From sequence record MN850625.1: a stretch of DNA of 41,110 nucleotides; one strand, given 5' to 3'. The first letter of the stretch is position 1; each line of letters starts with the position of its first letter. The DNA is from Escherichia phage smaasur. The notes beneath the pieces were generated by a model that saw only the letters and a program-made list of their open reading frames with translations, had not been told where the DNA came from and made no database searches. The position numbers and the translations under genes are program-made. This document shows, piece after piece, positions 560 to 28,971 of the stretch.

Positions 560-3010
560 TTAAATTCTCCGAACCTTGTTATAGAACTTGACGTAATAAC
601 CTAAACCTTGAATGTTCAGGTCGCCTGCTGTAGTGGACGTGACCACCATGCTGCTGGACTCAACCTCCAGACCCATACGCACTTTGAGGTGCGCACGCTT
701 CGCCAGAGTTGCTGACTCCAGACCAAGCTCCTGACTCGTGTATCGAATCGGGCTGGAGATGATGTTCAGTGCAGAGTACGCCCCACGGTCACTGGCCGTG
801 ATAGTGAAGAGGCTCGTGTACCGCAACGTGAAGTTGTAGTGCATGATGACCATCTTGTTCACGTCCATGTACGAACCGTCGCCGTTGAAGATTCTCGGCG
901 GCGTAGGGCTGAACGTTGCAGTGAATCGCAGGCCCACATACAGCGACGTGCTGCCGTACGAGGGTTGCAGGTACACACGTCGGTTCGCAGTGTCGATGGA
1001 CTTGATACCAACCTCGGCACCGATGTACTGACCGGACGGCACAACCGTGGTCATAAAGTCCCAGTTGCCATCAGCCAGATACCGGGCTTGGATGATATCC
1101 CACAGCGCTTTCTGGATTCCGTCAGCCGCGAACTGGATGTACGAGTTGTCCGTCGCCGGGTTGGTCACAGTCATGAGCTGACTGTAATCCGTTGCCGGGA
1201 GGAAACGCGCTGGGTCAGTCGGGTCTGGAGAATCTCGCATGGACAGCGTAAGCATGTTCATGTGGCCGTTCTGCTCAACCAGCATCACCAGCACTTCACG
1301 GACGAACCATGCGGCGTGGATAGTGCCGTACAGCTCCCAGCGATGCCAAGACGACAACACCTTCTCATCGCCTGACCAGAGGTACTCGTTCACGTATAGC
1401 GTGGACTTCTCAGTGGTCGAGCCGAACACTACGATGTTGTTCGTGGTGCTGGCAGAGATGTAGCTGTTAGCCCCTTCCAGATAAGTCGGCAGGTGGTCGG
1501 TCACATCCTGACTCACGTACTGCAAATCCGTGTAACCGGACGGTAGCATCTCCTTGACGGAGAATGAGCTGTTCGAGCGCGGGTACGAATAATACAGGCT
1601 GCGGCCAGAGGTGGTCGGCGCTACGCCAGTGTCCATCTGGTACGTCGAGGTCAACACGGCGGTGGCGTTGTTCGGCGTGAGGATTTGGTTACGTCCGGGG
1701 ATGACTGCTTGGTGTTCCTCACTGGCCAGAATCAGGTCAGAGTTGAACGGCACCCCGTACCGGAACGAAGCCCCGGCGAAGCTGGATGCTGTGAACTCAA
1801 TGCGGTCATCGTCCAGCACCTGCGTAACAGTGGTGCGGAAGAAGTTGTTCCGGTCATCCTTGTTGCTGGAACCCATTGTGATGTACGGGCCACTGAATAC
1901 AATCAGGCGACCTTGGAACGAGGCCAAGCCAGTAATACCCACGCCATTAGCATCAGTGAATGCAGGGATGGAATTGGTCAGGTCATCGCCAGCCAAGCGG
2001 CCCGGCCAGCTACCCTGAGAGAAAGTGTGCTGGTTCGCGGTAGATGAGGTCTTGAACACCAACGGCATGGTGCTTGGGTTAATCCCGGTCGGGGAGCCGT
2101 AGGCACCTTTCTCAACCCAGCGTGAGTCATTGTAACTCCACTGGAAGTATTGAGCGAAGCTGGCGTCGCCCACAGTCATGATGAACCCACCCGCCGCCGC
2201 AGGCAATCTCGCCGGGAGCTTAGTGGTAAGGTCTACCGTGTGGGTGTTGGATGCAATGGCATAGCTTGAACCAGTCGAGGTAGATACGTTCATGTCGGCA
2301 GCAGCTTCGGTACACTGGATGTACAGGTACGCACCATCCTGTGCCACGACTTCTATACCCTCAGCCCCGCCTACGTGCGTGTCGAGCTGAGACTTGAGCT
2401 GACCGACGATGTACTCCGGCGTGGACTCTTGTGAAGGGTTGCCCGTTGTTGATGAGCTTTCCGGCGTAGTATACGTTGCACTCACTGCGCCCAACTTGGT
2501 CTGCACTCGCACGGTGAACTGCTTACCGTAAGCACCAGCGATAACAAAATAGTAACCCCGGCGACCCGGATTCATTCGCGTTTCGTTCTCGATTAGCACG
2601 GGCAGCTTGGAACAGTTGGCAACGTACATGGTGTTGCCTACGGTCGTGAATACAATGTCGTCGGGGTTATTTGCGATGAGATAATTCGACTGACCCATGA
2701 ACTGGACAGTCTCTGTCTCCACGATGGAGGTCACGTACCCAGTCTTCGTGTTAACGATGAACGTGGTAATCCCCCACCCTAAGTTAGTGGTGTAGAACCG
2801 GAGGTGGCCAAAATTTCCAAGGCTCCATACAGTCGCGTTGGTCGAACTTACGTCACGACTTAGGCGAGTGCCGGGGCGCTTGCGCAGGCCACGAACGGTA
2901 TCGGAGGTCATGTTGACCTGTTCCTCAACCTGCGATAGCTGTCGGTCAGTATAGACCTGCTGGCTTACGCCGCCGAGGATGGATTTATACGAGCCTTGGT
3001 AAACTGGCAT
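560..3010 (-). CDS. tail tubular protein B (T7 gp12-like)
   Basis: 816 aa. N-terminus SILGGVSQQ resembles recalled T7 gp12 NLKGGISQQ; internal matches VGDASFAQYF (T7 VGDASKSADQYY), YYSYPRSNSSFS (T7 YFASPRSSFTS), DHLPTYL (T7 SHVPNYI). Lies directly after tail tubular A with a TAATG overlap. Confidence 0.85.
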   Translation of the reverse strand: MPVYQGSYKSILGGVSQQVYTDRQLSQVEEQVNMTSDTVRGLRKRPGTRLSRDVSSTNATVWSLGNFGHLRFYTTNLGWGITTFIVNTKTGYVTSIVETETVQFMGQSNYLIANNPDDIVFTTVGNTMYVANCSKLPVLIENETRMNPGRRGYYFVIAGAYGKQFTVRVQTKLGAVSATYTTPESSSTTGNPSQESTPEYIVGQLKSQLDTHVGGAEGIEVVAQDGAYLYIQCTEAAADMNVSTSTGSSYAIASNTHTVDLTTKLPARLPAAAGGFIMTVGDASFAQYFQWSYNDSRWVEKGAYGSPTGINPSTMPLVFKTSSTANQHTFSQGSWPGRLAGDDLTNSIPAFTDANGVGITGLASFQGRLIVFSGPYITMGSSNKDDRNNFFRTTVTQVLDDDRIEFTASSFAGASFRYGVPFNSDLILASEEHQAVIPGRNQILTPNNATAVLTSTYQMDTGVAPTTSGRSLYYSYPRSNSSFSVKEMLPSGYTDLQYVSQDVTDHLPTYLEGANSYISASTTNNIVVFGSTTEKSTLYVNEYLWSGDEKVLSSWHRWELYGTIHAAWFVREVLVMLVEQNGHMNMLTLSMRDSPDPTDPARFLPATDYSQLMTVTNPATDNSYIQFAADGIQKALWDIIQARYLADGNWDFMTTVVPSGQYIGAEVGIKSIDTANRRVYLQPSYGSTSLYVGLRFTATFSPTPPRIFNGDGSYMDVNKMVIMHYNFTLRYTSLFTITASDRGAYSALNIISSPIRYTSQELGLESATLAKRAHLKVRMGLEVESSSMVVTSTTAGDLNIQGLGYYVKFYNKVRRI

Positions 3011-3558
3011 TATCCTCTCCGAGCACTCTCATAGCGCCACCAGCTCTGACGCTGGCGAGCATTGAATCGACGTTGACGGGTGTGGATAGACTGGCACTGC
3101 TGCAATGCGTTCGCATAGCCGCCAGTAACCGACACCGGGGGATTGTCTCCCATATCATCAGCATACGCAGAGATGGCTGCCTGATACGCAACCAGTCGCT
3201 GGACTGGACTTGGAAGGTCATCCCACTCAAGGTCATAAGTAACCAATCCCGGAACATCCTCAGTAAAAACAAAGGTTTGGGATTGGGCGTTGTAAAGATA
3301 CCCGCCTCGCACGATACACTCAAACCCATCCGGGATGAAGCTCAGTGCGTCTGCGGGGTATTTGACTCGACCATCCGACTCGCGTGGAATGGTGATTCGG
3401 ATGTTGTTGAACCACCAACCGTCAGTGAGAACCTCTTCCTGTGCGATGGCAATCTTGTCAAGGGCAAGAGTGACGGACGGGTTTCGAATCTCAGTCGAGG
3501 ATACGGTGTGCTCAGACAATGCCCGAAGAACGATGTTTACTGCTTCGAGTAGAGTCAC
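3010..3558 (-). CDS. tail tubular protein A (T7 gp11-like), probable GTG start
   Basis: 182 aa, between capsid and tail tubular B; size and position match T7 gp11 (196 aa). Start codon is GTG at 3558-3556, preceded by AGGAGACTTATC. Confidence 0.7.
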   Translation of the reverse strand: MTLLEAVNIVLRALSEHTVSSTEIRNPSVTLALDKIAIAQEEVLTDGWWFNNIRITIPRESDGRVKYPADALSFIPDGFECIVRGGYLYNAQSQTFVFTEDVPGLVTYDLEWDDLPSPVQRLVAYQAAISAYADDMGDNPPVSVTGGYANALQQCQSIHTRQRRFNARQRQSWWRYESARRG

Positions 3559-3585
3559 GATAAGTCTCCTGTAACGACAATCATA

Positions 3586-3608
3586 GAAGCCCCTCAGAGA
3601 AGGGCTTC
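3586..3608 (-). terminator. candidate transcription terminator/attenuator hairpin downstream of the major capsid gene
   Basis: Minus-strand 7-bp GC-rich stem GAAGCCC/GGGCTTC with 9-nt loop, followed by a moderately U-rich tract (tatgattgtcgtt). Position is analogous to T7 Tphi after gene 10. The U tract is imperfect. Confidence 0.35.
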
Positions 3609-3618
3609 GAGTTTGCCA

Positions 3619-4611
3619 TTAGGCTTCGGTGGTAACGACACCCACCACGTCAGGACGCTTCTGACCCACAGTGTACATGTGGAAGCTATCCAGAACGTTG
3701 GTCATCTCTTTCTCGTCATCCCATACGCGGTTGAACAGCGGCTGGGCTTCGACGGTAACGAGAGCCAGAGACGGGTCGAACACAATCAGCTTACGCTTGA
3801 TTTCGTCGGCAGTGACGTTGAAGTCGGCACCGAGCAGGTGGTCGGTGATTGCAGCCTGCGGGAAAGCATTGCTCTCAATCAGGCGAATACCGTTGACGTA
3901 CGCAACACGGCGCATTGCGAAGTCGTTCACACCACGGCCACCAGTGAACTCAACGTTCATCAGTTTCTTGTGCTCCAGCAGGATGCTGAACCACGCCGGG
4001 TCAATCAGCGTAACCAGACGGCCAAGGTCAGCATCGCGGCGAATGAACGCTTCGATAACTTTCTTGTGGCCATGCACGATTGCGCTTGCGTCGTCTTCTT
4101 CGGAAGCGACGGTGCCAGTCAGCGTAATCTTCTCTTTGATACCAGCGTTGAATGCGCCAGCCAGAGAAGTCGGAGGCACGAAGTCAGCGCACTTCTGGAG
4201 CTGAATTACGTGCGCTTGGTCGAACGCCTTAGCCTGTGCAGTACCCATGTTACGGGTCAGCTCAGCACGGAAGTCCGGCGCAGTCCAGTCATCCTGATAG
4301 TCAATCGGGATACGGATGTAAGACACGGTATCCACAGTGACAATCAGCTTCTCGGAGCGCACTGGCTGGTTAACCAGAGACTCGCCGGACTTACGACCTT
4401 TCACGGTCACGCTGCCGAGGCGGTCGCCACGCCAAGTGTTGGACTGGTTAGCCACGGACTTGAAGTTGGTCAGACCGGAACGGAAGATGGAGTTGTAAAT
4501 AAACTGGGTCTGCACGTCACGGTCATACACCTCAAGGTGAATGTCGTTGTCAGAGTTCGCGCCACCCCAGTGTGGACGGAACTGGTTCGGGGTATAGGAG
4601 TTAGCTGCCAT
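3619..4611 (-). CDS. major capsid protein
   Basis: 330 aa, directly downstream of the scaffold gene and upstream of tail tubular A. Has an AAGGA ribosome-binding site and is followed by a hairpin. Size fits T7-like HK97-fold capsid proteins. Call is positional plus size. Confidence 0.8.
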   Translation of the reverse strand: MAANSYTPNQFRPHWGGANSDNDIHLEVYDRDVQTQFIYNSIFRSGLTNFKSVANQSNTWRGDRLGSVTVKGRKSGESLVNQPVRSEKLIVTVDTVSYIRIPIDYQDDWTAPDFRAELTRNMGTAQAKAFDQAHVIQLQKCADFVPPTSLAGAFNAGIKEKITLTGTVASEEDDASAIVHGHKKVIEAFIRRDADLGRLVTLIDPAWFSILLEHKKLMNVEFTGGRGVNDFAMRRVAYVNGIRLIESNAFPQAAITDHLLGADFNVTADEIKRKLIVFDPSLALVTVEAQPLFNRVWDDEKEMTNVLDSFHMYTVGQKRPDVVGVVTTEA

Positions 4612-5855: not shown

Positions 5856-5865
5856 GTAATCTCCA

Positions 5866-8376: not shown

Positions 8377-10809
8377 TTAGCAGAAGAATTTGGAGGATTT
8401 CTTGACCTCGTTGATATCCAACTGGCCCCGTGCTGGAGCTTCCTTAGAATATCTCACGGCAAGTTGTTGAATCGGGTCATTTTCCTCGTACATCTGCACG
8501 AATTTTTCACGGATGACTTTGTGCAGTAGACCTGCATGAGCTGCTGCAACACCGAACGAGTCATGAATGGATACCATGTACACCCCGTTATTCCACATCT
8601 CCCACAGGACTTTCGTCATGTGGCTGGCATCCATCGCATGTACAAAATTCGGAGCAATCGCAGCCGCGCATTTGCGACCGTCTGGCTTGTCGATGAACTC
8701 ACGCAGCTTGATGGCATGAACGCCCATCAGCTTGATACCCATAGTGGTCTCTTTGTGAGCCTGATACATGTTCACCACACGCAGACCAGACGGGGCAGTG
8801 AACTCCACATACTCACCGTTAGCCGCCGCCTCAGATGCGATAGCTTGCAGCCATGCCATCAGCTCAGCAGCCTTTGGCACCACGCGAGGAATTGCATCCC
8901 ACATGAACCCGGCGATGTACATTGCGCACTGGAACAGGGTGTACCCTTCCGGTAGCGGAGTGTTGTGCTCCCGTAAATACAGCGCATAGTAATCCACCAT
9001 GCCGTGGCGTGTCGCACCGTACACATAAGTCATCACAGGCTTCTTAGCCATACCGCGCTCTATGCCAGTCTGTATGAGCCACGAACCCAAGACAGTAGGG
9101 TTGGTTGCCTCTGCTTCCTTCAACGCCTCCAGAGCCGCCGTAGCGGTCTTAACGTAGATGTCTGCCTTACGTCCTACTGAATCAATCAGGTTAACCGCAG
9201 CCCCGCCCACCTCGTCACGCAGCATTGCTGAGAGATGTTGCAGACCTGAGCACGTCGCGTCCCACTGTGTCACCACACGGCACGGATACTCTTCCGGGTT
9301 CCCGCTATCCAGCGCACGCACCAGCTCTACCGCAGCCGCCCATGCACACAGTGGGCTGTCAGCCTCAGACCAGAATGAGTCGTATGCCTCTGGCAGACGG
9401 CAAGCCTCGCGCAGTCGCGGCATTGTCTTGTCCGTCCATGCCGCCCGGTCTTCAAAGTCTGTGGAGTCATAGCCGAAGCAGTTGGCCACATGAACCTTCA
9501 ACCAGAACAGACCCTCCTTACCAAGCGGCACCGGGTCAGCCAGCTCAAGCAAAGCACGAATCGCGTCAATGCCTTGCGGGTTCAGGGATGTGGCATAGTA
9601 GCAACGGCCACGAGTGTCGGCGTATGTCGGCAGGTAGATTCGCTCGTACACTTTGTACTGCTCAGCCTCACGCAGCGCACTGCTCAGCGCCTGAATCTGC
9701 GTGGTGAACTTCTTCATGTCGTTGTGGTAAATGCGAGTCTTAACCTTGAACTCGTGCGCCTCAGCGTCCATGCGCTGCTGCATCTCAGCCGGGAACTTGC
9801 TGATGTACTGGCCGAACGTTACGCCTTCCGGGATAGTGAACGGCAGCTTAGGCTCCACTGGAGCAACAGGCAACCCCATCACCCCGGTTCTGTTGGCTTG
9901 TAAGAACTCCAGCACCATCTTGTTCACGCGGAACGGAACGTTTGACAGCATCATGCACGGCTCAATCATCGGTCGTGGGTCAATACCTAACTTGCGATAC
10001 GCCGGGTGCTTGAGCTTGCTGATTACCGCATACGTTGCCGCCTGCCCCGGAGAGTGCCACATACCGCCAAAGCCATTCGCACTGATTTGAGCTGGCGGTA
10101 TAATCAGCGGCGGGTAGCAACTGATGCCGAGGTGTGGCAGCTTCATCCAATCCTCAAGCATGATGAGCACATCGTCATGCAGAGCGAAGTGCGCAGTCGC
10201 CCGGTTCTTCAAGCTACCGCCCACTCGGACAGTCTTGACCAGACCAGTCGGCTCGACAGCACGCATCATCAACTTGCCGATTGTGATGAGCGCACGCTGT
10301 GGCAGGCTTTCAATCTCGACACCAACATTTGCCGAGGCAGCGCGTGCCTTGTTGTAGATGTGGTTTGGCGACTTAGACTTGGACTTATTCACGTCGCGGC
10401 GAACCCTCTCCATATACGCAGCCTCACGCTTACCAGCCCGCTCAGCTCGTGCATAGACTACCTCAGCCATCATTGCCTGCCCCATCTCGCGGAGCAGTTG
10501 AGTCACGGCGGTACGCCCGGTCGCGCCGGACACCGCCATGCTCAGGGCCAGAGACGCGCAGGTCTTGGCCCCGACTTCACGAAGGTACGTGCGGTACTGC
10601 GCACCGAACCCACGAGTAGTTTCGTTCAGGATATCCAGCATTGCAGCTTCGACAGTGGGGTATGCCTCAACCATCGCTCGCTGCAACAGTGGCACCGCCG
10701 AGGCGCGGCCTGAGTCTATCGCATCTCGTACGTTATCTAACCAGCCTGCCCGGTGACGGGCACGCGCCTCTTCTTCCAGTCGAATCTGTTCTGCCAGCAA
10801 ATCCATCAC
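8377..10809 (-). CDS. T7-like single-subunit DNA-directed RNA polymerase
   Basis: 810 aa. [20 protein letters not shown] matches T7 RNAP motif A region [32 protein letters not shown]...SIHDSFG matches T7 motif C region PNFVHSQDGSHL...IHDSFGT. Confidence 0.95.
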   Translation of the reverse strand: [810 protein letters not shown]

Positions 10810-18337: not shown

Positions 18338-19007
18338 CCAAATGGTCGGGCATACGATTCACGTACTCCTGAATGCGTGGCAGCAACTTCTCGTGCTTCT
18401 CTAACATGTAAGCCAGACGACTCATGCTCGCATCCGGTCGGCATACACGCAGGGTCAGCAGGTCGTCGTAGCTTTCTACCAGACTGGCCAGCGCCGGATA
18501 CCACTGCACATCCTCGGCAGTCAGCTTCGGCTCATACGGGTACGCCATGAAGTCACCGGGGTCACGGCTGTACTGGCCGGAGTAGCGCGGGATACTGGAC
18601 GGGAAGTAGAACTGGTTCAGGTTGAAGTCGAACTCGTTCAGCACCTGTGACCAGCAGCCGCACTTACTGATGATGATATCGACCGGGCCAACTTTGTACA
18701 CGCCGTACAGTCGAGAGCCAAAGTCGCCGCCCTCTTCTGCGTCGTGGTAACTCGGCATGTACTCATAGGCCAGCCTGTGCTCAGCAGCCCAGTCCTCCAG
18801 CCGGGAGTCCAGCCAGTCCAGTCGGCGAGCAACGCGCTGCACGTCACCGCCCCAACCGAACACCACGATATCAAAGTCCTTCGGGTCTACACCAAGCGCG
18901 GTGTCTCGTGCCCCACCCCCTGCAACGACAAAGCTCAGCTCTTCGCCCTGCAACAGCCGACAGATTTCCTCTGCCCACACGCGCTTGAAGTCGTTATCAC
19001 TTGTCAC
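18324..19007 (-). CDS. Pol-beta-superfamily nucleotidyltransferase with CCA-adding-enzyme-like head motif
   Basis: 227 aa. VVAGGGARDTALGVDPKDFDIVVF matches the class II tRNA nucleotidyltransferase / poly(A) polymerase head signature GGxxRDxxLGxxxxDxD; a third acidic residue follows at PVDIIIS. Confidence 0.55.
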   Translation of the reverse strand: MTSDNDFKRVWAEEICRLLQGEELSFVVAGGGARDTALGVDPKDFDIVVFGWGGDVQRVARRLDWLDSRLEDWAAEHRLAYEYMPSYHDAEEGGDFGSRLYGVYKVGPVDIIISKCGCWSQVLNEFDFNLNQFYFPSSIPRYSGQYSRDPGDFMAYPYEPKLTAEDVQWYPALASLVESYDDLLTLRVCRPDASMSRLAYMLEKHEKLLPRIQEYVNRMPDHLGGTA

Positions 19008-20936: not shown

Positions 20937-21650
20937 CTATATTGTTCGCACCCTGCCACACACTCTCAGCTCACGCCTGAGCCTGTCGCTCTGTCGGTGC
21001 TGCAATGATATCACTTCATAACGATTGGCCAGCGCAACGCTAACCAGAGCGCGTACGGTGGCATCGTCGGCATTGGCTACGAACGCTGCATTGCCATCCA
21101 CTCTGTCACCACGACGAACGTGGTCGAGATATGCTGATGCACTGTCGTAAATCCATATCCCTTTGAACTCATCGTCGTCATGATTACTTACTGTCACTGC
21201 CATTAGATGGTTGTGTGGCGAGCGCCACGGAATGAACTGCCGCCCGGTATAGTCCAGACCGCAGTAGCTTGCCGAGTTGTCCGGCAAGTAGATACGCCCG
21301 TACGTTGGGCTGGCAGACAACACACTCAGGTGTGGCAGCAGCTCGTTCTTCTCCAGCGCTGGCAATAACAGACCGGGCTGTTTCGCTATCACCTCAATGA
21401 GAGGCACAACGTCAGTCGGTATCTTCACTTGCTCTTTGGCTGGCGATACATACGGTGCATGGTTGAGGGGTTTAAAATCAGAGTGGCCACAGCGATGGCA
21501 CTTGCACCATACGCCCTCGCTGTTCCGGCCATACTCAAAGTTGGTCTTATTGAATGAGCGTGAGCAAGCGTGAAACGTCCGACGCTTTTGTCCTATCGGC
21601 AGACGCCTCGCCAGCTCCGGCCATTCATCATTGCCCACTGACTTTCTCAT
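20937..21650 (-). CDS. putative DNA primase (Cys-rich zinc-binding N-terminus)
   Basis: 237 aa directly upstream of the helicase. N-terminal HACSRS...CKCHRCGH cysteine/histidine cluster resembles primase zinc-binding domains. TOPRIM motifs not confidently identified. Confidence 0.4.
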   Translation of the reverse strand: MRKSVGNDEWPELARRLPIGQKRRTFHACSRSFNKTNFEYGRNSEGVWCKCHRCGHSDFKPLNHAPYVSPAKEQVKIPTDVVPLIEVIAKQPGLLLPALEKNELLPHLSVLSASPTYGRIYLPDNSASYCGLDYTGRQFIPWRSPHNHLMAVTVSNHDDDEFKGIWIYDSASAYLDHVRRGDRVDGNAAFVANADDATVRALVSVALANRYEVISLQHRQSDRLRRELRVCGRVRTI

Positions 21651-22099
21651 TCGTTATCCCACTCCGGCTCGTACTTAACTACACGTTTCATATTGACGCT
21701 ACCCACCACACGCAATACACGGGCAGTGCAGCCGTACGTTCTGGCCAATCTCTCAGCCTCGCGCCGCGCCGACTCTTCCGTAGTGTGCTCAACCTTCGGC
21801 GGCGTAGAGCCACCTACAACTACGCACATGAACCTGCCCCGGCTCGGCTCGGCCACAGGTTCAGGCTCGCCTATCAGCACGGTGTTGGAGGTTAGCCAGT
21901 CAGATTTGTAGCGCCCTATCTCCGGCTCCGTTCTGCGGTATCCGTTCTCTGACATGTACCAATGCACGAGGTATTTGATATCACCTTGCGGAGCATCTGG
22001 CCGTGCATAAATTACAATGCCTTCTGAGCCACGGCGCGTACCACAGTTGGAGCCAACCATTCGTATGCGGTCGCCCATTGCATAGGTCTTATCTACCAT
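21647..22099 (-). CDS. hypothetical protein with N-terminal GDRIR motif (small paralogous family)
   Basis: 150 aa; begins MGDRIRMVGSNCGTRRGSEGIVIYAR, paralogous pattern to the genes at 19309..19662 and 24363..24626. Confidence 0.5.
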   Translation of the reverse strand: MVDKTYAMGDRIRMVGSNCGTRRGSEGIVIYARPDAPQGDIKYLVHWYMSENGYRRTEPEIGRYKSDWLTSNTVLIGEPEPVAEPSRGRFMCVVVGGSTPPKVEHTTEESARREAERLARTYGCTARVLRVVGSVNMKRVVKYEPEWDNE

Positions 22100-22296
22100 T
22101 TAATCCACCCCCGGTTCTGGCCTACACTCAGGCTCAACTGCATCAGACCCCAGCCTACCAGCATACCGAGCAGCGTGCCCAGTGTTGAGGTGGCTGACTC
22201 ACCGACCGCAGGGATAAGCACCAGTGATGCAAGACCCACCCACAATGCTCCCCAAATAATTATCAGAAGCAGGAACAACAATATTACTTTGAGCAT
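22093..22296 (-). CDS. small membrane protein (two predicted transmembrane helices)
   Basis: Start placed at ATG 22296 (MLKVILLFLLLIIIWGALWVGLASLVLIPAVG...), preceded by GGAGGAGA. The ORF track's longer frame begins further upstream and includes the repeated ATGAAAGTAACTGT element at 22318-22332. Confidence 0.45.
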   Translation of the reverse strand: MLKVILLFLLLIIIWGALWVGLASLVLIPAVGESATSTLGTLLGMLVGWGLMQLSLSVGQNRGWIKW

Positions 22297-22317
22297 ATCT
22301 CCTCCGATGTTGTGCAA

Positions 22318-22332
22318 TACAGTTACTTTCAT
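22318..22332 (-). repeat. repeated element ATGAAAGTAACTGTa (copy 3, 14/15 match)
   Basis: On the minus strand, 22 nt upstream of the ATG at 22296 of the small membrane protein gene. Confidence 0.55.
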
Positions 22333-22364
22333 GGTGGCATCTCTCACGAAATGCCACGAGTAAG

Positions 22365-22607
22365 TCACTTAATTGTTTCGACCTTGGACAAATCATACTG
22401 CCCGTCAGCCAGCCGTTCCGGGTACAGGAACTGCGCCCGGCCATCGGTAACACCTTCGAAGTGCAGCATCTCAGGATTGTATTCGTCCCGACCTTTGAAG
22501 ATGAACTTGCCTGCATTCACTTCCAGTGCGACCGAACAGAACACACCGCCGCTCAGCTTGTACGCGGAACCGACTTCAAGTTTGCTTTCGTCTTTGATGA
22601 TAGTCAT
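22365..22607 (-). CDS. hypothetical small protein
   Basis: 80 aa ORF in the early gene block; no motif recognised. Confidence 0.45.
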   Translation of the reverse strand: MTIIKDESKLEVGSAYKLSGGVFCSVALEVNAGKFIFKGRDEYNPEMLHFEGVTDGRAQFLYPERLADGQYDLSKVETIK

Positions 22608-22760
22608 GCTGGTACTCCCATTCTGTTTACGATACGTTGCAGGTCATCTCGTTTAGCTTCGGCCTGCCACTTTGTGTCACGGACAGCAAACGGTCTGCCC
22701 GGTAGGTCAGCGTACACCACCCACCAGTGCTTACCAGTGGGTGATTTACGCACCACTAAT

Positions 22761-23276
22761 TCAGTGGAGCGTTGCACGTTTCACCTCGCTCGCCGCCGCC
22801 AGCAGCTCACCCAGTCCTTCCTTCAACTGTTGCAGCATGGCATCCAGTACCTCGCCAGCGAACAACACACTTGCGTGCGTCTCGCTCAGGTCGGCAGGCA
22901 CATTCTCACATGCCTGATACCAGTCGTGGTAGCTGGCGTGTACCGTCTCTTCACATGCGAAACGGATAACCAGCGCTGCCGCCATGCGGAGCTGCACCGC
23001 ACGGTCTGTTTCACCTGCTGCCTCCAGAGACTTGGTGCCGAGGCCAGCCAGCAGTGTGATGTTGCGTGCGATGATGGCACCAGTACGGGTCGGCGGGATG
23101 ATATCCACCATGTCCAGTCGGCCTGCCTTAATCGCTGCCACGTACGTCATCTTTGGCAGGAAGCCGCCACGAAATTCAATCACGTCGGATACTTCCGGGC
23201 GCTCATCAATCTCTGCGGCCATGCGTTTGGTTAATTCGAACTGCTGTTTGTCGAACGTTGCGAAGTTAATAGCCAT
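22761..23276 (-). CDS. hypothetical protein
   Basis: 171 aa ORF, tightly packed with neighbours. Confidence 0.5.
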   Translation of the reverse strand: MAINFATFDKQQFELTKRMAAEIDERPEVSDVIEFRGGFLPKMTYVAAIKAGRLDMVDIIPPTRTGAIIARNITLLAGLGTKSLEAAGETDRAVQLRMAAALVIRFACEETVHASYHDWYQACENVPADLSETHASVLFAGEVLDAMLQQLKEGLGELLAAASEVKRATLH

Positions 23277-23279
23277 GAT

Positions 23280-23576
23280 TTATTTACCTTTTACTTTACG
23301 GATAGAGAACTTGTCATTCTCGTAGGCGTAGAACTCATACTCAGGAGCATGGCCTGCCTTCGTAACGACCAGTCGTTTGCCATCATACTCGACGGCACCG
23401 ATGCGTTGCACGTAGCCAGAGTACGCTACGATGTAGTCACCAATTTCCAGTTGCTCACTGGTCTTGGTCACGTACTCGAACGGCTCAGGGTCTGCAACTT
23501 CCACGCGCTGCGGTGGTGGGCCGAAGCTATCCTTCACCCACTGAACCAACGCATCCCACTTAGCACTTCTGCTCAT
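23280..23576 (-). CDS. hypothetical protein (99 aa from MSRSAKW)
   Basis: Start moved to ATG 23576, which has a GGAGGAAAGAGAGG ribosome-binding site and lies 1 nt after the upstream TAG. Confidence 0.45.
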   Translation of the reverse strand: MSRSAKWDALVQWVKDSFGPPPQRVEVADPEPFEYVTKTSEQLEIGDYIVAYSGYVQRIGAVEYDGKRLVVTKAGHAPEYEFYAYENDKFSIRKVKGK

Positions 23577-23577
23577 A

Positions 23578-23862
23578 CTATACCTCTCTTTCCTCCAGCC
23601 ATTGTTGCGCGGCTGCATACGCATCTTCATAACTTACGAAGCCGTCGAACTCATCGCCGTTCGGTGCGAGGAAACACCAGTCGAGATGTACATGTGGGTT
23701 GCCCTTCGAGAAGATTACGCAGGGGAATACACCGCCGACCGAGTGACCGCGCAGGCCGCCGTTACCAGCGCAGTGACCAAGCGTTGCGGCTACACCACGC
23801 AGATGCTCAGCCTCCCGGATTGCGCTGGCTTGTTCGATAATTGTTTCTGATGCCAGTACCAT
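23578..23862 (-). CDS. hypothetical small protein
   Basis: 94 aa ORF in the early block. Confidence 0.4.
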   Translation of the reverse strand: MVLASETIIEQASAIREAEHLRGVAATLGHCAGNGGLRGHSVGGVFPCVIFSKGNPHVHLDWCFLAPNGDEFDGFVSYEDAYAAAQQWLEEREV

Positions 23863-24024
23863 ATCGCTACCCTCTCATTAAATAATACTCGTGGTGCATG
23901 TAGTGACCGCCGAGATACACCGCCCGGCTGAACAGGTTGGGGTTGCTCGCCCCACCCAGCGCACAGTAACCAGCGTACGTTATCTGATTAGCGTGCGCAT
24001 TGTACGTGCTGCCGCCCATGCTCA

Positions 24025-24360
24025 TCACTCCCGCTCAGCTATGCCGAACAGATACATGTCGCCAGAGTACACTGTCGTCATGGTCGCCAGCCATTGCTGC
24101 ATGATGCGAACGCTCGCATTGAAGTGCTGGTCATTCAGCAGGTCAATGATAAACGGACGGCCACCAGCGTACGCCTTGACTCGCTCTATTATCTGCTGGT
24201 CAGTGGCATCCTCAGCAGTGAGGTGATGCCCCATGATTTCAAACTGGTTGAATACAACCAGACCTTCGCGGCCATCAGGCAGGAGGTAGACGAAAGCCAC
24301 AACGTGCTCGCCATCCTCAAAGTCCTTGCCGCGTTTGATGAGTACCTTGTGAATGGCCAT
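24025..24360 (-). CDS. hypothetical small protein
   Basis: 111 aa ORF; start abuts the upstream stop at 24363. Confidence 0.45.
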   Translation of the reverse strand: MAIHKVLIKRGKDFEDGEHVVAFVYLLPDGREGLVVFNQFEIMGHHLTAEDATDQQIIERVKAYAGGRPFIIDLLNDQHFNASVRIMQQWLATMTTVYSGDMYLFGIAERE

Positions 24361-24362
24361 AC

Positions 24363-24626
24363 TTACTCCACTTCGAAGTCGCCGTCGTCGTCGTAGCCGT
24401 ACCCCAGTACGCCAGCCAGTTCGCCGTTAACACCTTCGGCCTGCGCCTCATCAAACAGGACGATGAAGTCATCATCATCGGACGCCAGACCACGGTACAC
24501 ATCTGCATCCGGGTGCGCATCGAATACAGGCAGGCTCTTACCAGTATCGCCACGGTACACGACCACACCTACAGCGTTGCCGAACCATCTTGACTTAACG
24601 CGCTGACCTAATTCTAATTTGCTCAT
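24363..24626 (-). CDS. small acidic protein (N-terminal GQRVK motif, Asp-rich C-terminus)
   Basis: Start placed at ATG 24626 (MSKLELGQRVK), which has a GAGGA ribosome-binding site. C-terminus DDDDFIVLFDEAQAEGVNGELAGVLGYGYDDDGDFEVE is strongly acidic. Confidence 0.5.
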   Translation of the reverse strand: MSKLELGQRVKSRWFGNAVGVVVYRGDTGKSLPVFDAHPDADVYRGLASDDDDFIVLFDEAQAEGVNGELAGVLGYGYDDDGDFEVE

Positions 24627-24663
24627 GTTAATATCCTCAAATGGATGGGGCAGGATTGCCATA

Positions 24664-24687
24664 AAGCCAGCGCCGGAACACTGGCTT
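24664..24687 (-). promoter_or_regulatory. intergenic RNA hairpin (7-bp stem AAGCCAG/CTGGCTT, 10-nt loop)
   Basis: Perfect inverted repeat read directly from sequence, between the stop at 24703 and the start at 24626. Confidence 0.4.
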
Positions 24688-24702
24688 GAGTCAATCCCGC
24701 TA

Positions 24703-24978
24703 TTACGCAGCTTCGTCTACGACGCCGATGTGCTCCAGCTCTACGCCTTCACCCCACACACGCTTGGCTGCATCTTGCAGCTCGTGAATCTGGATACCAG
24801 ACAGGATGAAGATGAGTTCAGGCGGCACGCCTTCACGGTTCAGTTCGGCCAGCACGCCTTCGCCATCAGTCGGCTCGTTGTCGCGGCGAGTGTGAGCCAG
24901 ATAGTGGCCGTTCTTTTCCAGTGCGTAGGCCACTACGTTGTTTGATTCGGTGCCACGTACGATGTAACCATTTGCCAT
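24703..24978 (-). CDS. small acidic early protein
   Basis: 91 aa with AAGGAGA ribosome-binding site; net acidic (many D/E). Confidence 0.5.
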   Translation of the reverse strand: MANGYIVRGTESNNVVAYALEKNGHYLAHTRRDNEPTDGEGVLAELNREGVPPELIFILSGIQIHELQDAAKRVWGEGVELEHIGVVDEAA

Positions 24979-25019
24979 GATAAGTCTCCTTAGACTTTGA
25001 TTGTTGGGTGAGTACAGTT

Positions 25020-25041
25020 CAGGCCACCCGCAGATGGCCTG
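25020..25041 (-). promoter_or_regulatory. conserved stop-proximal RNA hairpin (stem CAGGCCA/TGGCCTG) with flanking GATTACTGA
   Basis: Perfect 7-bp inverted repeat with 8-nt loop, immediately downstream of the stop of gene 25049..25318. Same stem sequence recurs at 25348-25370. Confidence 0.45.
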
Positions 25042-25048
25042 TCAGTAA

Positions 25049-25318
25049 TCACTCAGCGAACGGGATGGTGCCGATGAACTCCAGCGTCACCTCGCCATGC
25101 TGTTCCTCGACGTACTCGATGTTGGCAGCTTCGGCGCGGCCAGACACGTCAAACAGCAGTTCGCTATAGGCCACCTGACCAATCAGGAAGTCCAGAATCT
25201 CCTGCGTACTTGGGTCGCCTTCTTTGACGTACGCCAGCAGGGTCAGCCCTTTCTGATTGTCCAGCAGGTAGAATACCACCTTGCCAGATGCGTCTTTGAC
25301 CAAACTCACACGAATCAT
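25049..25318 (-). CDS. hypothetical small early protein (89 aa from MIRVSL)
   Basis: Start moved to ATG 25318, which follows AAAGGAGG; the ORF track's upstream ATG at 25345 lacks a ribosome-binding site. Confidence 0.5.
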   Translation of the reverse strand: MIRVSLVKDASGKVVFYLLDNQKGLTLLAYVKEGDPSTQEILDFLIGQVAYSELLFDVSGRAEAANIEYVEEQHGEVTLEFIGTIPFAE

Positions 25319-25347
25319 GCAGCCTCCTTTGGCTTGGGATAACAATT

Positions 25348-25370
25348 CAGGCCACTCATTGAATGGCCTG
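25348..25370 (-). promoter_or_regulatory. conserved stop-proximal RNA hairpin (stem CAGGCCA/TGGCCTG) with flanking GCTAACTGA
   Basis: Same 7-bp stem as at 25020-25041, 9-nt loop; lies between the stop at 25385 and the start at 25318. Confidence 0.45.
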
Positions 25371-25384
25371 TCAGTTAGCCCAGC

Positions 25385-25696
25385 TTACTCGTCGTCAGAT
25401 TCGACGCTGTAAACCTCGTCGATATCTGCGCCTTCTACGTCGGCAGCGTCAATGAAAGGCACGCCGTTCAGCATGGCGATGAGCGCCAGCGGCATGTCAG
25501 CATCCAGACCCTGTTCACGGAAGTGCGCTTCGATTTCTTCCTTCGAGTCGCCGTCTTTGTTGATGCCTGCAATCAGGTAGCCCTGACCGTCAGTGATTGC
25601 GACGTACTGCTTGCTCTGTACGTCTTCCAGTTTGACGCCTTCACCGAAAGCAGAGGCAGGCAGGTTGTTCAGCAGGACTACAGTTAATTTGGACAT
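25385..25696 (-). CDS. small acidic early protein
   Basis: 103 aa with GGAGACTTAAC-ATG initiation region; C-terminus DAADVEGADIDEVYSVESDDE. Confidence 0.5.
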   Translation of the reverse strand: MSKLTVVLLNNLPASAFGEGVKLEDVQSKQYVAITDGQGYLIAGINKDGDSKEEIEAHFREQGLDADMPLALIAMLNGVPFIDAADVEGADIDEVYSVESDDE

Positions 25697-25743
25697 GTTA
25701 AGTCTCCAGTTGGGATTGTGGCATTATTGCCGTGGTTACAATC

Positions 25744-25767
25744 GAAGGCACTCGCTTGAATGCCTTC
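25744..25767 (-). promoter_or_regulatory. stop-proximal RNA hairpin (stem GAAGGCA/TGCCTTC) with flanking GATTACTGA
   Basis: Perfect 7-bp inverted repeat with 10-nt loop, directly after the stop of gene 25775..26311; same GATTACTGA flank as the 25020 hairpin. Confidence 0.45.
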
Positions 25768-25774
25768 TCAGTAA

Positions 25775-26311
25775 TCACGCAGCTTTCAGCTTGCGCAGGC
25801 CGTCCAGCACGTTCTGAGGCACGACAACCTTGTTCGCGTCTTCATCACGCCCCTCATGGCGCAGCTCGTTCGCCTTGTTCATCGCCTTCTCAGCTTTGGC
25901 AATGAGCTTGTCCAGCGCTTCTTGCAGGTCGAAGCCTTCGAACGCTGGCTCAGGCTTGCAAGTCCACCACATCGTGGCTTTCGCCTTGTCGATGTTCAGC
26001 TTGATATGCTCCGCGCCTTTCCAGCCCACGAAGCCTGTCTTGCCATCATCCTTCTCGCCTACAATCAGGCCGCCGAACTGGACGAACCAGTCAACCAGTG
26101 CTTTACCACGCACGCCTTCACCCAGTTGGTTGGTAAAGGTTTCGGCACGAGTGTAGTCGCCGTGGTTATAAGCGTGCAGGATGATGCCGACCGCAACATT
26201 CTGAATCTCGTTGCGGAGTGAGTGCGCCTTTTTAACAGTCGCTTCGATAGCTTTGTCCAGCGCGGCAGCGTCTTTGAACGCGGTATATTTAACAGTAGTC
26301 ATGATAGTCAC
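25775..26311 (-). CDS. hypothetical early protein
   Basis: 178 aa ORF, second gene after the early promoter region. Confidence 0.5.
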   Translation of the reverse strand: MTIMTTVKYTAFKDAAALDKAIEATVKKAHSLRNEIQNVAVGIILHAYNHGDYTRAETFTNQLGEGVRGKALVDWFVQFGGLIVGEKDDGKTGFVGWKGAEHIKLNIDKAKATMWWTCKPEPAFEGFDLQEALDKLIAKAEKAMNKANELRHEGRDEDANKVVVPQNVLDGLRKLKAA

Positions 26312-26447
26312 CTTGTCGGTTGGTTGATTTCACATAGCGCCCCGCAGGACGCTATAGGCTATCAGCCACGACGACGGCTCAGGCGCTGGTCAATGACCCA
26401 GCAGGCCGCCGCTATAATGCACAGTGCAGTGAACATAGTCATTCCCC

Positions 26448-26837
26448 TTACTCCACTACCCAAAACAGTTCACCGTCATACGTCCAAGCGGTATGTTGCC
26501 CGGCTTCCATCTGCTCGCCTGTTTTGCTGACCAGCTTGCCAGCAGGCTTGCCCGGATACGGTGAATCCATGAAGATTGCATCATTGTCATCGGTCACTAC
26601 CATGATGCAGTCCTGTTCAAGAGCCTTACAGAACAGCGTAACAGCCTGCCTGATTTCGTAGATTCCATCGACGGGAAAGACCATGCTCAGCTCGTACTGA
26701 TTGTCGAACTTGCCCGTCAGTGTGACCGGAATCACTCCGAACATATCCTGCACCGTTCGCAGTGCCTTGCAATGTAGCGCCAGATTAACACACTCAGCGT
26801 TATTCGGACGATATGCGCTTGCATAGATACGGTACAT
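26448..26837 (-). CDS. hypothetical early protein (first gene downstream of the early promoter cluster)
   Basis: 129 aa; preceded by CTGGAGAAATAACT-ATG. Lies ~550-700 nt downstream of the sigma70-like promoters, giving a long leader comparable to the T7 early transcript. Confidence 0.5.
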   Translation of the reverse strand: MYRIYASAYRPNNAECVNLALHCKALRTVQDMFGVIPVTLTGKFDNQYELSMVFPVDGIYEIRQAVTLFCKALEQDCIMVVTDDNDAIFMDSPYPGKPAGKLVSKTGEQMEAGQHTAWTYDGELFWVVE

Positions 26838-27369
26838 AGTTATTTCTCCAGTTATTGGCTATTTTCAGGTGGATAGTGAACCCATTGTGACGCGCCGTAC
26901 AGTCTGCACTCAGTGGCATTGATTGGCTTGTCGGATTCACTACCCTGAAAAATCGCCCCGCCCATTTCGCGCTGTGGATATTGTCTGCATCCACTCTCAG
27001 GAGTCTTCCAGCAGTCCGTCGCGTATCTTGCTCACCGTTGCCAGCTAACAAGCCGTTTGACTACCCACCCGCTATACTCCGCGCCTTATAAGACGTTCGG
27101 GATTGTACTGATACTGCGCTGCGTCTATCGCGCTTCTCCGTTCCCATGCACCGGGCGCTACCCCTATTGCCTTTCGGCGGTGCCTCACCCAGTTCCAACC
27201 TGCGGCGGATACCCAGTGAGCCGTGACACTACGCGGCCAGTTTGCGTTCACTCAGAGCAGGATGCTTTCCATCCTTTCAACTCGGTGCTGATTTCATCAT
27301 ATCTGAATCAGCTTGTCAACTACTTTTTACTTCTGACTGACTGGCTTGCTACCCGTCAATCTGGAGCGT

Positions 27370-27398
27370 ATTACAGCATACTCATTTCACCTTGTCAA
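27370..27398 (-). promoter_or_regulatory. candidate host sigma70 early promoter (minus strand TTGACA-17-TGTAAT)
   Basis: On the minus strand: TTGACA (plus 27393-27398), exact 17-nt spacer, TGTAAT (plus 27370-27375). Points toward the early genes. Confidence 0.5.
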
Positions 27399-27506
27399 CC
27401 GTTTTATTCAGCGCCCATTCTGAGATGAATAACCCGTACCAGTTCGCCTGCGTGTGTTTTAACGTCTTTATCAATGACTGTTTAGCTTGCTGGCTGACGT
27501 GGAAGC

Positions 27507-27535
27507 ATTACAGCATAGTGAGCTTGCCTTGTCAA
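27507..27535 (-). promoter_or_regulatory. candidate host sigma70 early promoter (minus strand TTGACA-17-TGTAAT), second copy
   Basis: Same architecture: TTGACA (plus 27530-27535), 17-nt spacer, TGTAAT (plus 27507-27512). A weaker third candidate is TTGACA (27313-27318) with TGAAAT (27290-27295). Confidence 0.5.
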
Positions 27536-27779
27536 TACACTCCAGATTGTTAAAGAGCATGGCTAACCGTCTAGCCCACCGTGTAACGATGTTCTGTTAC
27601 CCGGCGATGAGAATTACAGCAAATCACAAAGAGCATTGCAAGTATTATTTTCACTGAATACCTCAAATAGTGGATAAGTTATTGTATTCATTGATAATAA
27701 ATATTTGATTGAATAGGTTATTGCATAGCTTACATACAGCAGAATAACCGTAAATAAATCCTTTTAAATCAATGAGTAA

Positions 27780-27794
27780 ATGAAAGTAACTGTT
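27780..27794 (+). repeat. repeated element ATGAAAGTAACTGTT (copy 4, inverted, at the edge of the T-depleted terminus tract)
   Basis: Exact 15-mer on the plus strand, opposite to all genes; 18-nt identity with copy 1 (ATGAAAGTAACTGTTGTG). Sits at the junction between an AT-rich segment (27640-27780) and the T-depleted tract. Confidence 0.6.
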
Positions 27795-27799
27795 GTGTA

Positions 27800-28380
27800 T
27801 AGCAGTAGCGATACGCAGCGTAAGCGACGCAGCACGCAGTGCGATAGCGGAGCGCGGAGCGGAGCGAATGAGATACGGAGTAGCGAATGAGTGAACGCGA
27901 ACGGATAGCAAGTATCAGAGTGTTACACAGTACACACAGCAGACACACAGCGACGCGATGAGCTGGAGGAGCTGGAGCGCAGGCGGTAGCGCACAGAGTA
28001 CACCGTACACAGTACCGCACAGACACACACAGCAAGCGAGCGCAGGCAGCAGCAGCAACGCACAGAGCAAGCGAGCAAAAGAGATAGATAGCCCCGCGCC
28101 CAGCCACCGACACACAGCAGCACCGCACAGCACAGCGCAGGCCAGCGCAGGCGCGTCCAGTGGTAGCAGTGGCGCAGCGCACAGCAGCAGGACACAGCAC
28201 CGCACAGCACGCCACACGGCAGACGATGAAACGGGCACGCGCGAGCTGTTACCGCACGCACGCGAGCAATACCGCACGCGCAGGCACACGCGCATAATGC
28301 GCACACGTCATGCACGCGCACGCGCACAGGCGTACGGGGGCGCAGGCGCTCCTTCGGGTCGAGGGAGGCCCACGCACAAA
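27800..28380. repeat. strongly T-depleted, degenerate short-repeat tract at the presumed genome terminus
   Basis: Plus strand is almost entirely A/C/G with reiterated CACAG/GCGCAG/CAGCAC units; my hand count gives about 8% T over 27841-28380, and 28021-28080 has none. Lies between the last late gene (endolysin, ends 28435) and the early promoters, where T7-like phages carry terminal repeats and short-repeat arrays. Confidence 0.6.
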
Positions 28381-28434
28381 TAGTCAATTTTCAAGCCGGG
28401 AAACGCCTGTTCTATGTCACAGCTTTCAATGCCC

Positions 28435-28971
28435 CTATAACGTCGCACAGTAAGCGCTACAGCGTTTTGCACGAGCAACCAAGGCATCCCTATACCGAAC
28501 GATTGTCGGGGCTGTAGAAGCCTTTAGGAACGCAATACGAAGGTCACAGATGGATGCTGCTGCGGAGTGAGGTTCCAGACGTTTGGCTGCTGCCACGGTT
28601 GCAGGGCCAATAACCCCGTCTTGTGCAACGCCGCATACCCGCTGTAGAGCTTTCGCCGCACGGCTGATACCGGAGTTGACACCGTAGTCGAACACGGCAC
28701 ATGCAATCGCAGGGTGTAGCTCGTCACCTTTGATGGGGTCGAAATACTCGGCCCGGTAGATAGCGTTGGCTTGCTCTTTGGTGAGCTGTTTGACAGGCAC
28801 ACAAATAGAGCCACCAAGCCCAGTAGGGACACCACAAATTCGGCCATCCAGTTTGCCATCACGAGCATCGCTAATTCCATGATTCGTTTCCCCTCCAGTG
28901 TCACCGGGCAGCTTGGTGTACCCGCCTTCTGCCAGCCCGGTGAACTTCATACAGATTTCAAAGTTAGTCAT
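28435..28971 (-). CDS. endolysin, glycoside hydrolase family 108-like with C-terminal peptidoglycan-binding region
   Basis: 178 aa. N-terminal FTGLAEGGYTKLPGDTGGETNHGIS matches the GH108 signature (EGGY...DxGGxTxxGI) as I recall it. Last gene before the terminus region. Confidence 0.7.
   Translation of the reverse strand: MTNFEICMKFTGLAEGGYTKLPGDTGGETNHGISDARDGKLDGRICGVPTGLGGSICVPVKQLTKEQANAIYRAEYFDPIKGDELHPAIACAVFDYGVNSGISRAAKALQRVCGVAQDGVIGPATVAAAKRLEPHSAAASICDLRIAFLKASTAPTIVRYRDALVARAKRCSAYCATL

Follow-up and report, generated by a model that had tools for sequence, protein, structure and literature searches.

Hairpins between the early genes of Escherichia phage smaasur as probable parts of T7-type RNase III processing signals

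The 41,110-bp stretch of Escherichia phage smaasur DNA analyzed here (sequence record MN850625.1; hereafter the window) comprises the complete or nearly complete genome of a phage, in which all genes are on the minus strand, and the short perfect hairpins in consecutive gaps between its early genes raise the question of what role they play in the early messenger RNA (mRNA). The original prediction had described four such hairpins and offered RNase III or RNase E processing, stabilization of 3' ends or service as binding sites as their possible functions. Perfect 7-bp inverted repeats were indeed present at exactly the four reported positions on the coding (minus) strand, each following a stop codon and preceding the next ribosome-binding site: 24664-24687 (stem AAGCCAG/CTGGCTT, loop of 10 nt), 25020-25041 (CAGGCCA/TGGCCTG, 8 nt), 25348-25370 (again CAGGCCA/TGGCCTG, the stem common to these two hairpins, 9 nt) and 25744-25767 (GAAGGCA/TGCCTTC, 10 nt); the elements to which they belong are called below g4, g3, g2 and g1, respectively. 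The comparisons with related phages and with phage T7 make it very likely that, in the early polycistronic mRNA of this Bonnellvirus phage, the hairpins form the upper stems of RNase III processing signals of the T7 type.

A two-stem element in the early intergenic gaps

The window as a whole contains 24 perfect 7-bp hairpins, a number equal to the chance expectation (23.3 ± 5.2 in dinucleotide shuffles). Five of these, however, were located in five early gaps that together span 355 nt (binomial P = 1.8e-6): the clustering of the hairpins in the early gaps is not a chance effect. The fifth perfect hairpin of the same kind, at 22334-22357, had been missed originally. The hairpins started 7–15 nt after the stop codons and were separated from the following Shine-Dalgarno sequence by 19–36 nt, instead of the 25–45 nt previously given for the distance to the next ribosome-binding site. 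The sequence motif said to precede three of the hairpins, GATTACTGA or GCTAACTGA, was present at all three, while its proposed connection with the upstream stop codon held for only two, where the TGA before the motif is the stop; at the third, the true upstream stop is a TAA located 8 nt further upstream. Searching the window with the pattern ACTGA-N3-GSCA-N6-12-TGSC, which joins the flanking motif to the stem, returned three occurrences against 0.07 expected.

When 76 early intergenic gaps, drawn from the window and from ten relatives, were aligned, nearly all that measured at least 40 nt showed a common plan: the stop codon (mostly UGA), 7–10 nt resembling UGAUUnCU and a G+C-rich hairpin with a variable stem were followed by a box similar to UAUGGCAAUCAUGCC, an A/C-rich stretch in which CAAC occurs, the Shine-Dalgarno sequence and the AUG. 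The conserved flanks of the hairpin are complementary, UGAUU..C (stop codon included) pairing with G..AAUCA of the box or, in one subtype, UGAUAA pairing with UUAUCA, which makes the unit a structure of two stems separated by an internal loop. This composite stem-loop occupies approximately 47 nt on the mRNA strand and includes a lower stem of 5–11 bp, usually with the UGA stop of the upstream gene in its 5' arm, an internal loop with ACUC or ACUGA on its 5' side and UAUG or RAUUG on its 3' side, and a G+C-rich upper stem of 9–10 bp. The latter ends in a U.G pair followed by a U-A pair (the "distal box") and is closed by a loop of 3–4 nt, often of the UNCG or GNRA type (AAGC, AAU, UGCG, UCCG and GUGA were seen in the coding-strand RNA folds). 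The 7-bp hairpins as first described are thus only the core of longer RNA stems, which also contain the U.G pair and one or two more pairs and have shorter loops; since a 7-bp hairpin alone is too short for RNase III, the substrate would be the longer composite stem-loop. The family had also been underestimated: besides the four reported members it includes 22320-22367 (g5), 26322-26364 (g0) and 3572-3618 (the late element), which brings it to at least seven in the window, all seven intergenic and encoded on the minus (coding) strand.

Two other interpretations of the conserved GGCAATCATGCC box were tried and rejected. It shares GGCAATCA with two promoters annotated in Pantoea phage LIMEzero, but the motif resembling a phage RNA polymerase promoter in the window is ATGAAAGTAACTGT, and the box is better read as a part of the lower stem, whose 3' arm it forms by pairing with UGAUU..C. 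As a small upstream open reading frame (ORF) or an alternative start, it has an ATG in frame with the annotated start in some subtypes; in others the frame is wrong, a stop follows the ATG, or CTG stands in its place.

The structure is conserved among related phages. The alignment used to examine this comprised 41 distinct elements trimmed from the relatives, with the window and T7 sequences kept out, and pairs were counted for a fixed structure. In the upper helix 98.8% of the cells were paired, with double-sided, compensatory changes at all eight pairs; the lower helix was paired in 73% of the cells, against 35–53% when the partner was slid by 1–3 columns. The covariation score of the whole structure reached 0.576 compared to 0.164 ± 0.016 in shuffled alignments (none of 500 reached the observed value) and to 0.07–0.15 in slid ones. 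The eighth pair of the upper stem (columns 23/34) was U.G in 28 of the 41 elements, where the opposite strand would give C.A, and a covariance model built from the same elements (the relatives' model) scored the coding strand far above the opposite one, with 45 vs 12 bits for g4 and 44 vs 10 bits for g2. Since the U.G pairs exist only on the mRNA strand, selection acts on the RNA and not on a DNA palindrome.

Likeness to the RNase III sites of T7

The T7 stretches located just upstream of genes 0.3, 0.5, 1, 1.1 and 1.3, which hold the classical RNase III sites, were read for comparison. T7 R1 (ACAGGUCAUCUGCGGGUGGCCUGAA) and g3 (ACAGGCCAUCUGCGGGUGGCCUGAA) showed a single difference in 25 nt, and T7 R1.1, with the order ACUC-AAGGUCAUUC-GCAA-GAGUGGCCUU-UAUGAUUG, was matched by g4 with ACUC-AAGCCAGUGU-UCCG-GCGCUGGCUU-UAUGGCAAU. 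The frame ACUC-[stem]-UAUGRU was common to g4, the late element and T7 R0.3, R0.5 and R1.1, and the apical CAUUC-loop-GAGUG of R1.1 was also present in g1 and g2. The stop codon is embedded in the T7 sites as well: the UGA stops of T7 genes 0.4, 0.7 and 18 (ends 1433, 3100 and 36822) open R0.5, R1 and R18.5.

Covariance models detected the two sets of elements reciprocally. Run on the whole T7 genome with the filters off, the relatives' model gave its top six matches, all on the plus strand and scoring from 34 down to 21.7 bits, at 1431-1479, 13857-13903, 36820-36867, 5851-5898, 856-901 and 3104-3149, and a weak seventh at 18566-18614; in this rank order they are positioned directly upstream of genes 0.5, 4.7, 18.5, 1.1, 0.3, 1 and 6.5. 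RNase III sites are not among the annotated features of the T7 records NC_001604 and V01146. In the opposite direction, a model made from seven T7 sites only (R3.8, R6.5 and R13, which have a different shape, were excluded) was run on the 41-kb window and ranked, on the coding strand, the late element (36.0 bits, E = 2e-8), g2 (31.0 bits, E = 8e-7), g5 (28.4 bits), g4 (27.6 bits, E = 1e-5), g3 (22.1 bits, E = 6e-4) and g1 (18.1 bits, E = 0.013). The only other match in the range of 18–36 bits was the reverse strand of g3, which with 19.1 bits ranked between g3 and g1, so that the difference between the strands was small for this element. The T7-only model also recovered the elements of the relatives, with 24 of 25 matches on the coding strand. 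The relatives' model scored g4 at 45.1, g2 at 43.9, g5 at 36.8, the late element at 34.1 and both g1 and g3 at 31.1 bits, and added g0 with 25.6 bits. A search of 21500-28500 against Rfam produced no meaningful family match, the best one reaching 21.8 bits against a 90-bit threshold and being located elsewhere.

The features that affect recognition and cleavage by RNase III were compared as well. A distal box of the canonical UA/UG pairs near the loop is a positive determinant that gives optimal binding of the Escherichia coli enzyme, and a change of UG to GU is strongly inhibitory (PMC1540722). The distal box was U.G followed by U-A in g1, g2, g5 and the late element, U.G followed by C-G in g3, as in T7 R1, and U.G followed by G-C in g4. 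Canonical and G.U pairs together numbered 9–10 in the upper stems, as they do in T7 R0.3, R1 and R1.1. In the region of the proximal box, g4 had AAGC/GCUU, near the AAGG/CCUU of R1.1; g2 and g3 had CAGG/CCUG, identical to T7 R1; and g1 and the late element had GAAG/CUUC. The assignment of position 4 of this box depends on the cleavage position. In T7 R1.1 the cut falls between UAU and GAUUG at nt 5887, which is consistent with the sequence.

Among the functions originally offered, RNase III processing of the kind found between the T7 early genes, leaving stabilizing 3' hairpins, was the one supported: the sequence, the two-stem architecture, the UG/UA distal box and the embedded stop codon all match T7. 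The sequence analysis produced no specific support for RNase E or protein-binding sites. By homology, processing of the elements by RNase III is strongly supported.

In the early region of T7, the host RNA polymerase makes a precursor of approximately 7,000 nt, RNase III cuts this RNA at five sites during its transcription, and R1.1 RNA receives a single phosphodiester cut (PMC4858673); internal loops limit the enzyme to one cut, leaving a 3' hairpin protective against 3'-to-5' exonucleases (PMC1540722). From this system we infer cleavage, its exact position and its effects on stability and translation in the window phage. The host RNase III would bind a quasi-continuous helix of approximately 20 bp and make one cut on the 3' side of the internal loop, a few nt past the upper stem. 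The upstream mRNA would then end in a stable hairpin resisting 3'-to-5' exonucleases, the downstream mRNA would start approximately 20–35 nt before its Shine-Dalgarno sequence with an A/C-rich, little-structured leader, and the early transcript would be split into mostly single-gene messages. In one relative (5433-5479) and in the homologous gaps of phages ROV85 and RZ4, the following gene is annotated as starting at the AUG of the GGCAAUCAUG box, which forms the 3' arm of the lower stem. The predicted cut would in these cases fall only a few nt upstream of the start codon, and either the start of such genes is mis-called or their mRNA is nearly leaderless.

Weighing the explanations

Several points weigh against RNase III processing. 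The T7 matches, which we take to be R0.5, R4.7, R18.5, R1.1, R0.3 and R1, were identified by the naming convention and by the coordinates of Dunn and Studier (1983). The lower stems are short and paired only to the extent given above; that of g1 is weak in the window and an alternative fold competes with it. The more distant g0 was absent from the matches of the T7-only model at E up to 10. An 11-bp helix from the cut to the tetraloop is sufficient and also the least that gives good reactivity (PMC1540722); with one or two canonical pairs fewer, the upper stems would reach this length only through stacking of non-canonical pairs in the internal loop. Finally, a G-C or C-G pair beside the scissile bond reduces the cleavage of a minimal R1.1 substrate 7- to 14-fold (PMC1540722), and the pair at the stem base is C-G in g2 and g3 and G-C in g1; T7 R1 has the same C-G.

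The last point would also fit the view that the elements are not cut at all and serve as structural punctuation, either as barriers to 3'-exonucleases after cleavage elsewhere (e.g., by RNase E) or as insulators protecting the ribosome-binding sites from pairing with upstream coding sequence, since such stem bases in g1–g3 could damp catalysis by RNase III (PMC1540722). Stable hairpins, many with UNCG or GNRA loops, their fixed placing between stop codons and Shine-Dalgarno sequences and the A/C-rich leaders downstream would all suit this function. An uncut barrier, however, needs neither the conserved ACUC/UAUG loops nor the UG/UA distal box nor a covarying lower stem, all of which are shared with the sites cut in T7, and we regard it as unlikely. 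Weak or partial transcription terminators, or attenuators, grading the expression of the early operon are still harder to reconcile with the data and appear the least probable of the explanations considered. The earlier statement that the hairpins are not classical terminators remains reasonable, although its argument from the lack of U-tracts was imperfect: g2 (hairpin 25348-25370) passes a loose terminator scan with 5 T in 8 nt, UUUAU or UAUGAUUGU follows g4 (UUUAU after 24664-24687) and the late element, and the LIMEzero record labels the homologous element before the primase gene a "putative factor-independent terminator". Yet most of the elements have no U-tract and only g2 passes the scan; the eight terminator-like sites of the region are no excess over shuffled sequences (5.2 ± 2.2); and six terminators in series would silence the essential genes further downstream in the operon. 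The homologous T7 elements, moreover, are known as RNase III sites (PMC4858673), and the T7 record places the early terminator TE at a different position, 7588.

Similarity to the promoter-early stem-loop (PeSL) cassettes of T4-type phages, reportedly described by Arbiol and colleagues in 2010, suggests a third possibility, namely a role at the DNA level, in which the elements would be recombination linkers for early gene cassettes or palindromes recognized by a protein. The elements are islands of 85–97% identity between non-homologous genes and the same subtypes recur beside different genes, as expected for such linkers, while strand-specific G.U pairs and flank motifs argue for selection at the RNA level, and the stems covary instead of staying identical, which a pure homology substrate would not need. 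As the main explanation of the hairpins this role seems highly improbable, and it could coexist with processing by RNase III.

The islands themselves were most evident at g4, which was conserved between non-homologous genes in seven of the ten relatives: isolated high-scoring segment pairs of 57–80 nt with 85–91% identity were found in five relatives, and the flanking genes matched in only one or two of the ten. In Escherichia phage J8-65 the homology restarts exactly at the start codon following g4, and the genes 23867..24028, 24025..24360 and 24363..24626 (window 23874-24624) are replaced by other genes. In several relatives with swapped early genes, nothing but the elements was conserved between these genes. 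Almost all small early genes of Bonnellvirus and Waewaevirus carried, at their 3' ends, one of approximately eight conserved element subtypes. It is conceivable, if rather doubtful, that the RNase III signals double as portable cassette linkers driving the shuffling of early (host-takeover or anti-defence) genes, as the T7-family counterpart of PeSLs, with palindromes that may be sensed by defences of the Lamassu/DdmABC type (PMC11707656).

The individual elements, their genomic context and known systems

Element g1 (25730..25777, minus strand, containing 25744-25767) is located between gene 25775..26302 and gene 25385..25696. It begins with the UGA stop (25777-25775) and continues with UUACUGA, the upper stem GAAGGCAUUC/GAGUGCCUUC (25767-25758/25753-25744) closed by the loop AAGC, and GAUUGUAACCA; in the proposed lower stem UGAUUAC (25777-25771) pairs with GUAACCA (25739-25733). 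In this gap, which follows a gp2-like gene, the window has GAAGGCA/UGCCUUC and phage Lidtsur has CAGCCCA/UGGGCUG with identical flanks. In g2 (25334..25380, minus strand, containing 25348-25370) the upper stem CAGGCCAUUC/GAGUGGCCUG with the loop AAU stands on a lower stem of UGGG-C-UAAC (25382-25374) with GUUA-U-CCCA (25343-25335), separated from it by the internal loop UGA/AAUU, and the Shine-Dalgarno sequence AGGAGG follows 19 nt past the hairpin. Element g3 (25006..25051, minus strand, containing 25020-25041) includes the UGA stop at 25051-25049, a lower stem UGA.UAC/GUA.UCA and an upper stem CAGGCCAUC/GGUGGCCUG with the loop UGCG. In g4 (24650..24697, minus strand, containing 24664-24687) the lower stem GCGGGAUUG (24700-24692) with CAAUCCUGC (24658-24650) is continued by ACUC, the upper stem AAGCCAGUGU/GCGCUGGCUU with the loop UCCG, and UAUGG.

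The fifth early element, g5 (22320..22367, minus strand), consists of a UGA stop, CUUACUC, the upper stem GUGGCAUUUC/GAGAUGCCAC (22357-22334) with the loop GUGA, and a final stretch CAUGAAAGUAACUG that overlaps a motif resembling a promoter of a phage RNA polymerase. Element g0 (26322..26364, minus strand), located between the S-adenosylmethionine (SAM)-hydrolase-like gene (26448..26837) and gene 25775..26302, has the order UGAUAGCC, stem UAUAGCGUCC/GGGCGCUAUG with the loop UGCG, and UGAAAUCA, and is a more distant member of the family. A 32-nt stretch of g0 (26329-26360, minus strand), which includes the hairpin AUAGCGUCC-UGCG-GGGCGCUAU, was 100% identical in Drulisvirus (Slopekvirinae) phages of E. 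coli, Klebsiella and Acinetobacter, where its copies are located, unannotated, in an early intergenic gap just upstream of the ribosome-binding site. The late element (3572..3618, minus strand), in the gap that separates the major head gene (3619..4611) from the tail tubular gene (3010..3558), has a lower stem UAAUGGCAA/UUGUCGUUA of 9 bp followed by ACUC, the upper stem GAAGCCCUUC/GAGGGGCUUC with the loop UCU, and UAUGAUUG; it was the best match of the T7-only model in the window and its fold had a z-score of -4.0. LIMEzero has an annotated terminator at the position matching the late element in the head/tail gap. The LIMEzero element before the primase gene (7255-7284), which is followed by UUUAUUAUC, scored 24.1 bits with the relatives' model and 18.9 bits with the T7-only model, and may be both an RNase III-like signal and a terminator.

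The closest relative was J8-65 (Autographiviridae, genus Bonnellvirus) with 93% identity over window 23500-27500; matches to other Bonnellvirus phages (of E. coli, Enterobacter, Pantoea, Cronobacter and Kosakonia) and to LIMEzero (Waewaevirus) were patchier and weaker, and, judged by sequence, the window phage is a Bonnellvirus. Its early region runs leftward from the SAM-hydrolase-like gene as a string of 80–180-codon genes without assigned function, and the gene order is phiKMV-like, with the RNA polymerase gene late in the DNA-metabolism block; an ORF of 810 aa (8377..10809) is taken as this gene from its size and position. The promoter-like motif ATGAAAGTAACTGT is repeated on the minus strand at approximately 22331-22310, approximately 8347-8330 and 8109-8091; one copy stands directly after g5, at the boundary of the early and middle regions, and another after ORF 8377..10809. 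A scan of the region found no sigma-70 promoter-like sites in the gaps between the early genes, which ruled out a PeSL-like sigma-70 promoter after the hairpins; a sigma-54 promoter (GG-N10-GC) was ruled out on inspection because of its wrong spacing, and TTCTGTC was too weak a match to the T7 class II pause signal ATCTGTT.

A literature search, with incomplete coverage, found no paper on RNase III sites in Bonnellvirus or Waewaevirus. The present analysis offers a testable annotation for approximately seven unannotated features per genome in these two genera, suggests that at least one published "terminator" annotation of LIMEzero is worth re-reading, and would extend T7-type RNase III punctuation past Studiervirinae to phages with the phiKMV layout, at a higher density that would yield mostly single-gene early messages. 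Such sites are relevant for predicting the expression of early genes in engineered or therapeutic phages, and the two covariance models could be used to annotate them throughout Autographiviridae. The Lamassu (DdmABC) defence is reportedly triggered by palindromes of T7 RNase III sites (PMC11707656), and a phage rich in such sites may be more exposed to it.

With intercistronic hairpins of the C(UUCG)G type, REP-like stabilizers and intrinsic terminators, the elements share stable G+C-rich hairpins with UNCG or GNRA loops located just past stop codons; they differ in their conserved lower helix, internal-loop sequences and distal box and in the lack of U-tracts. Similarly to PeSLs, they are repeated, conserved intergenic modules of approximately 50–70 nt with a stem-loop, flanking small variable early genes and outlasting these in conservation; in contrast to PeSLs, no sigma-70 promoter follows the stem-loop, and by sequence they belong with the T7 RNase III sites. 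The likeness to T7 R0.3, R0.5, R1, R1.1, R1.3, R4.7 and R18.5 includes a two-part stem-loop interrupted by an internal loop and located, on the mRNA strand, in early intercistronic gaps, an upper stem of 9–10 bp with a UG/UA distal box near a loop of 3–5 nt, the ACUC...UAUG internal loop, a UGA stop in the lower stem and reciprocal detection by covariance models, with cleavage in the window phage being a prediction. An adjoining phage promoter is a further parallel: g5 with its promoter-like motif resembles both the pairing of promoters and R sites in T7 and the "terminator + phage promoter" annotation of LIMEzero. Unlike T7, the hosts of these elements are Bonnellvirus and Waewaevirus phages outside Studiervirinae with a phiKMV-like gene order; the elements are denser, with six in approximately 4 kb (up to approximately ten in the relatives) against five in the T7 early precursor, and follow most early genes that end in an intergenic gap; the ACUGA/RAUUGU subtype of the internal loop predominates; and a late element occupies the head/tail gap, where T7 has the terminator Tphi. 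Judged by these sequence characters, the elements appear to be a known type of signal, the T7-type RNase III site, in a relative in which it was unannotated, a result that a specialist would find expected more than surprising.

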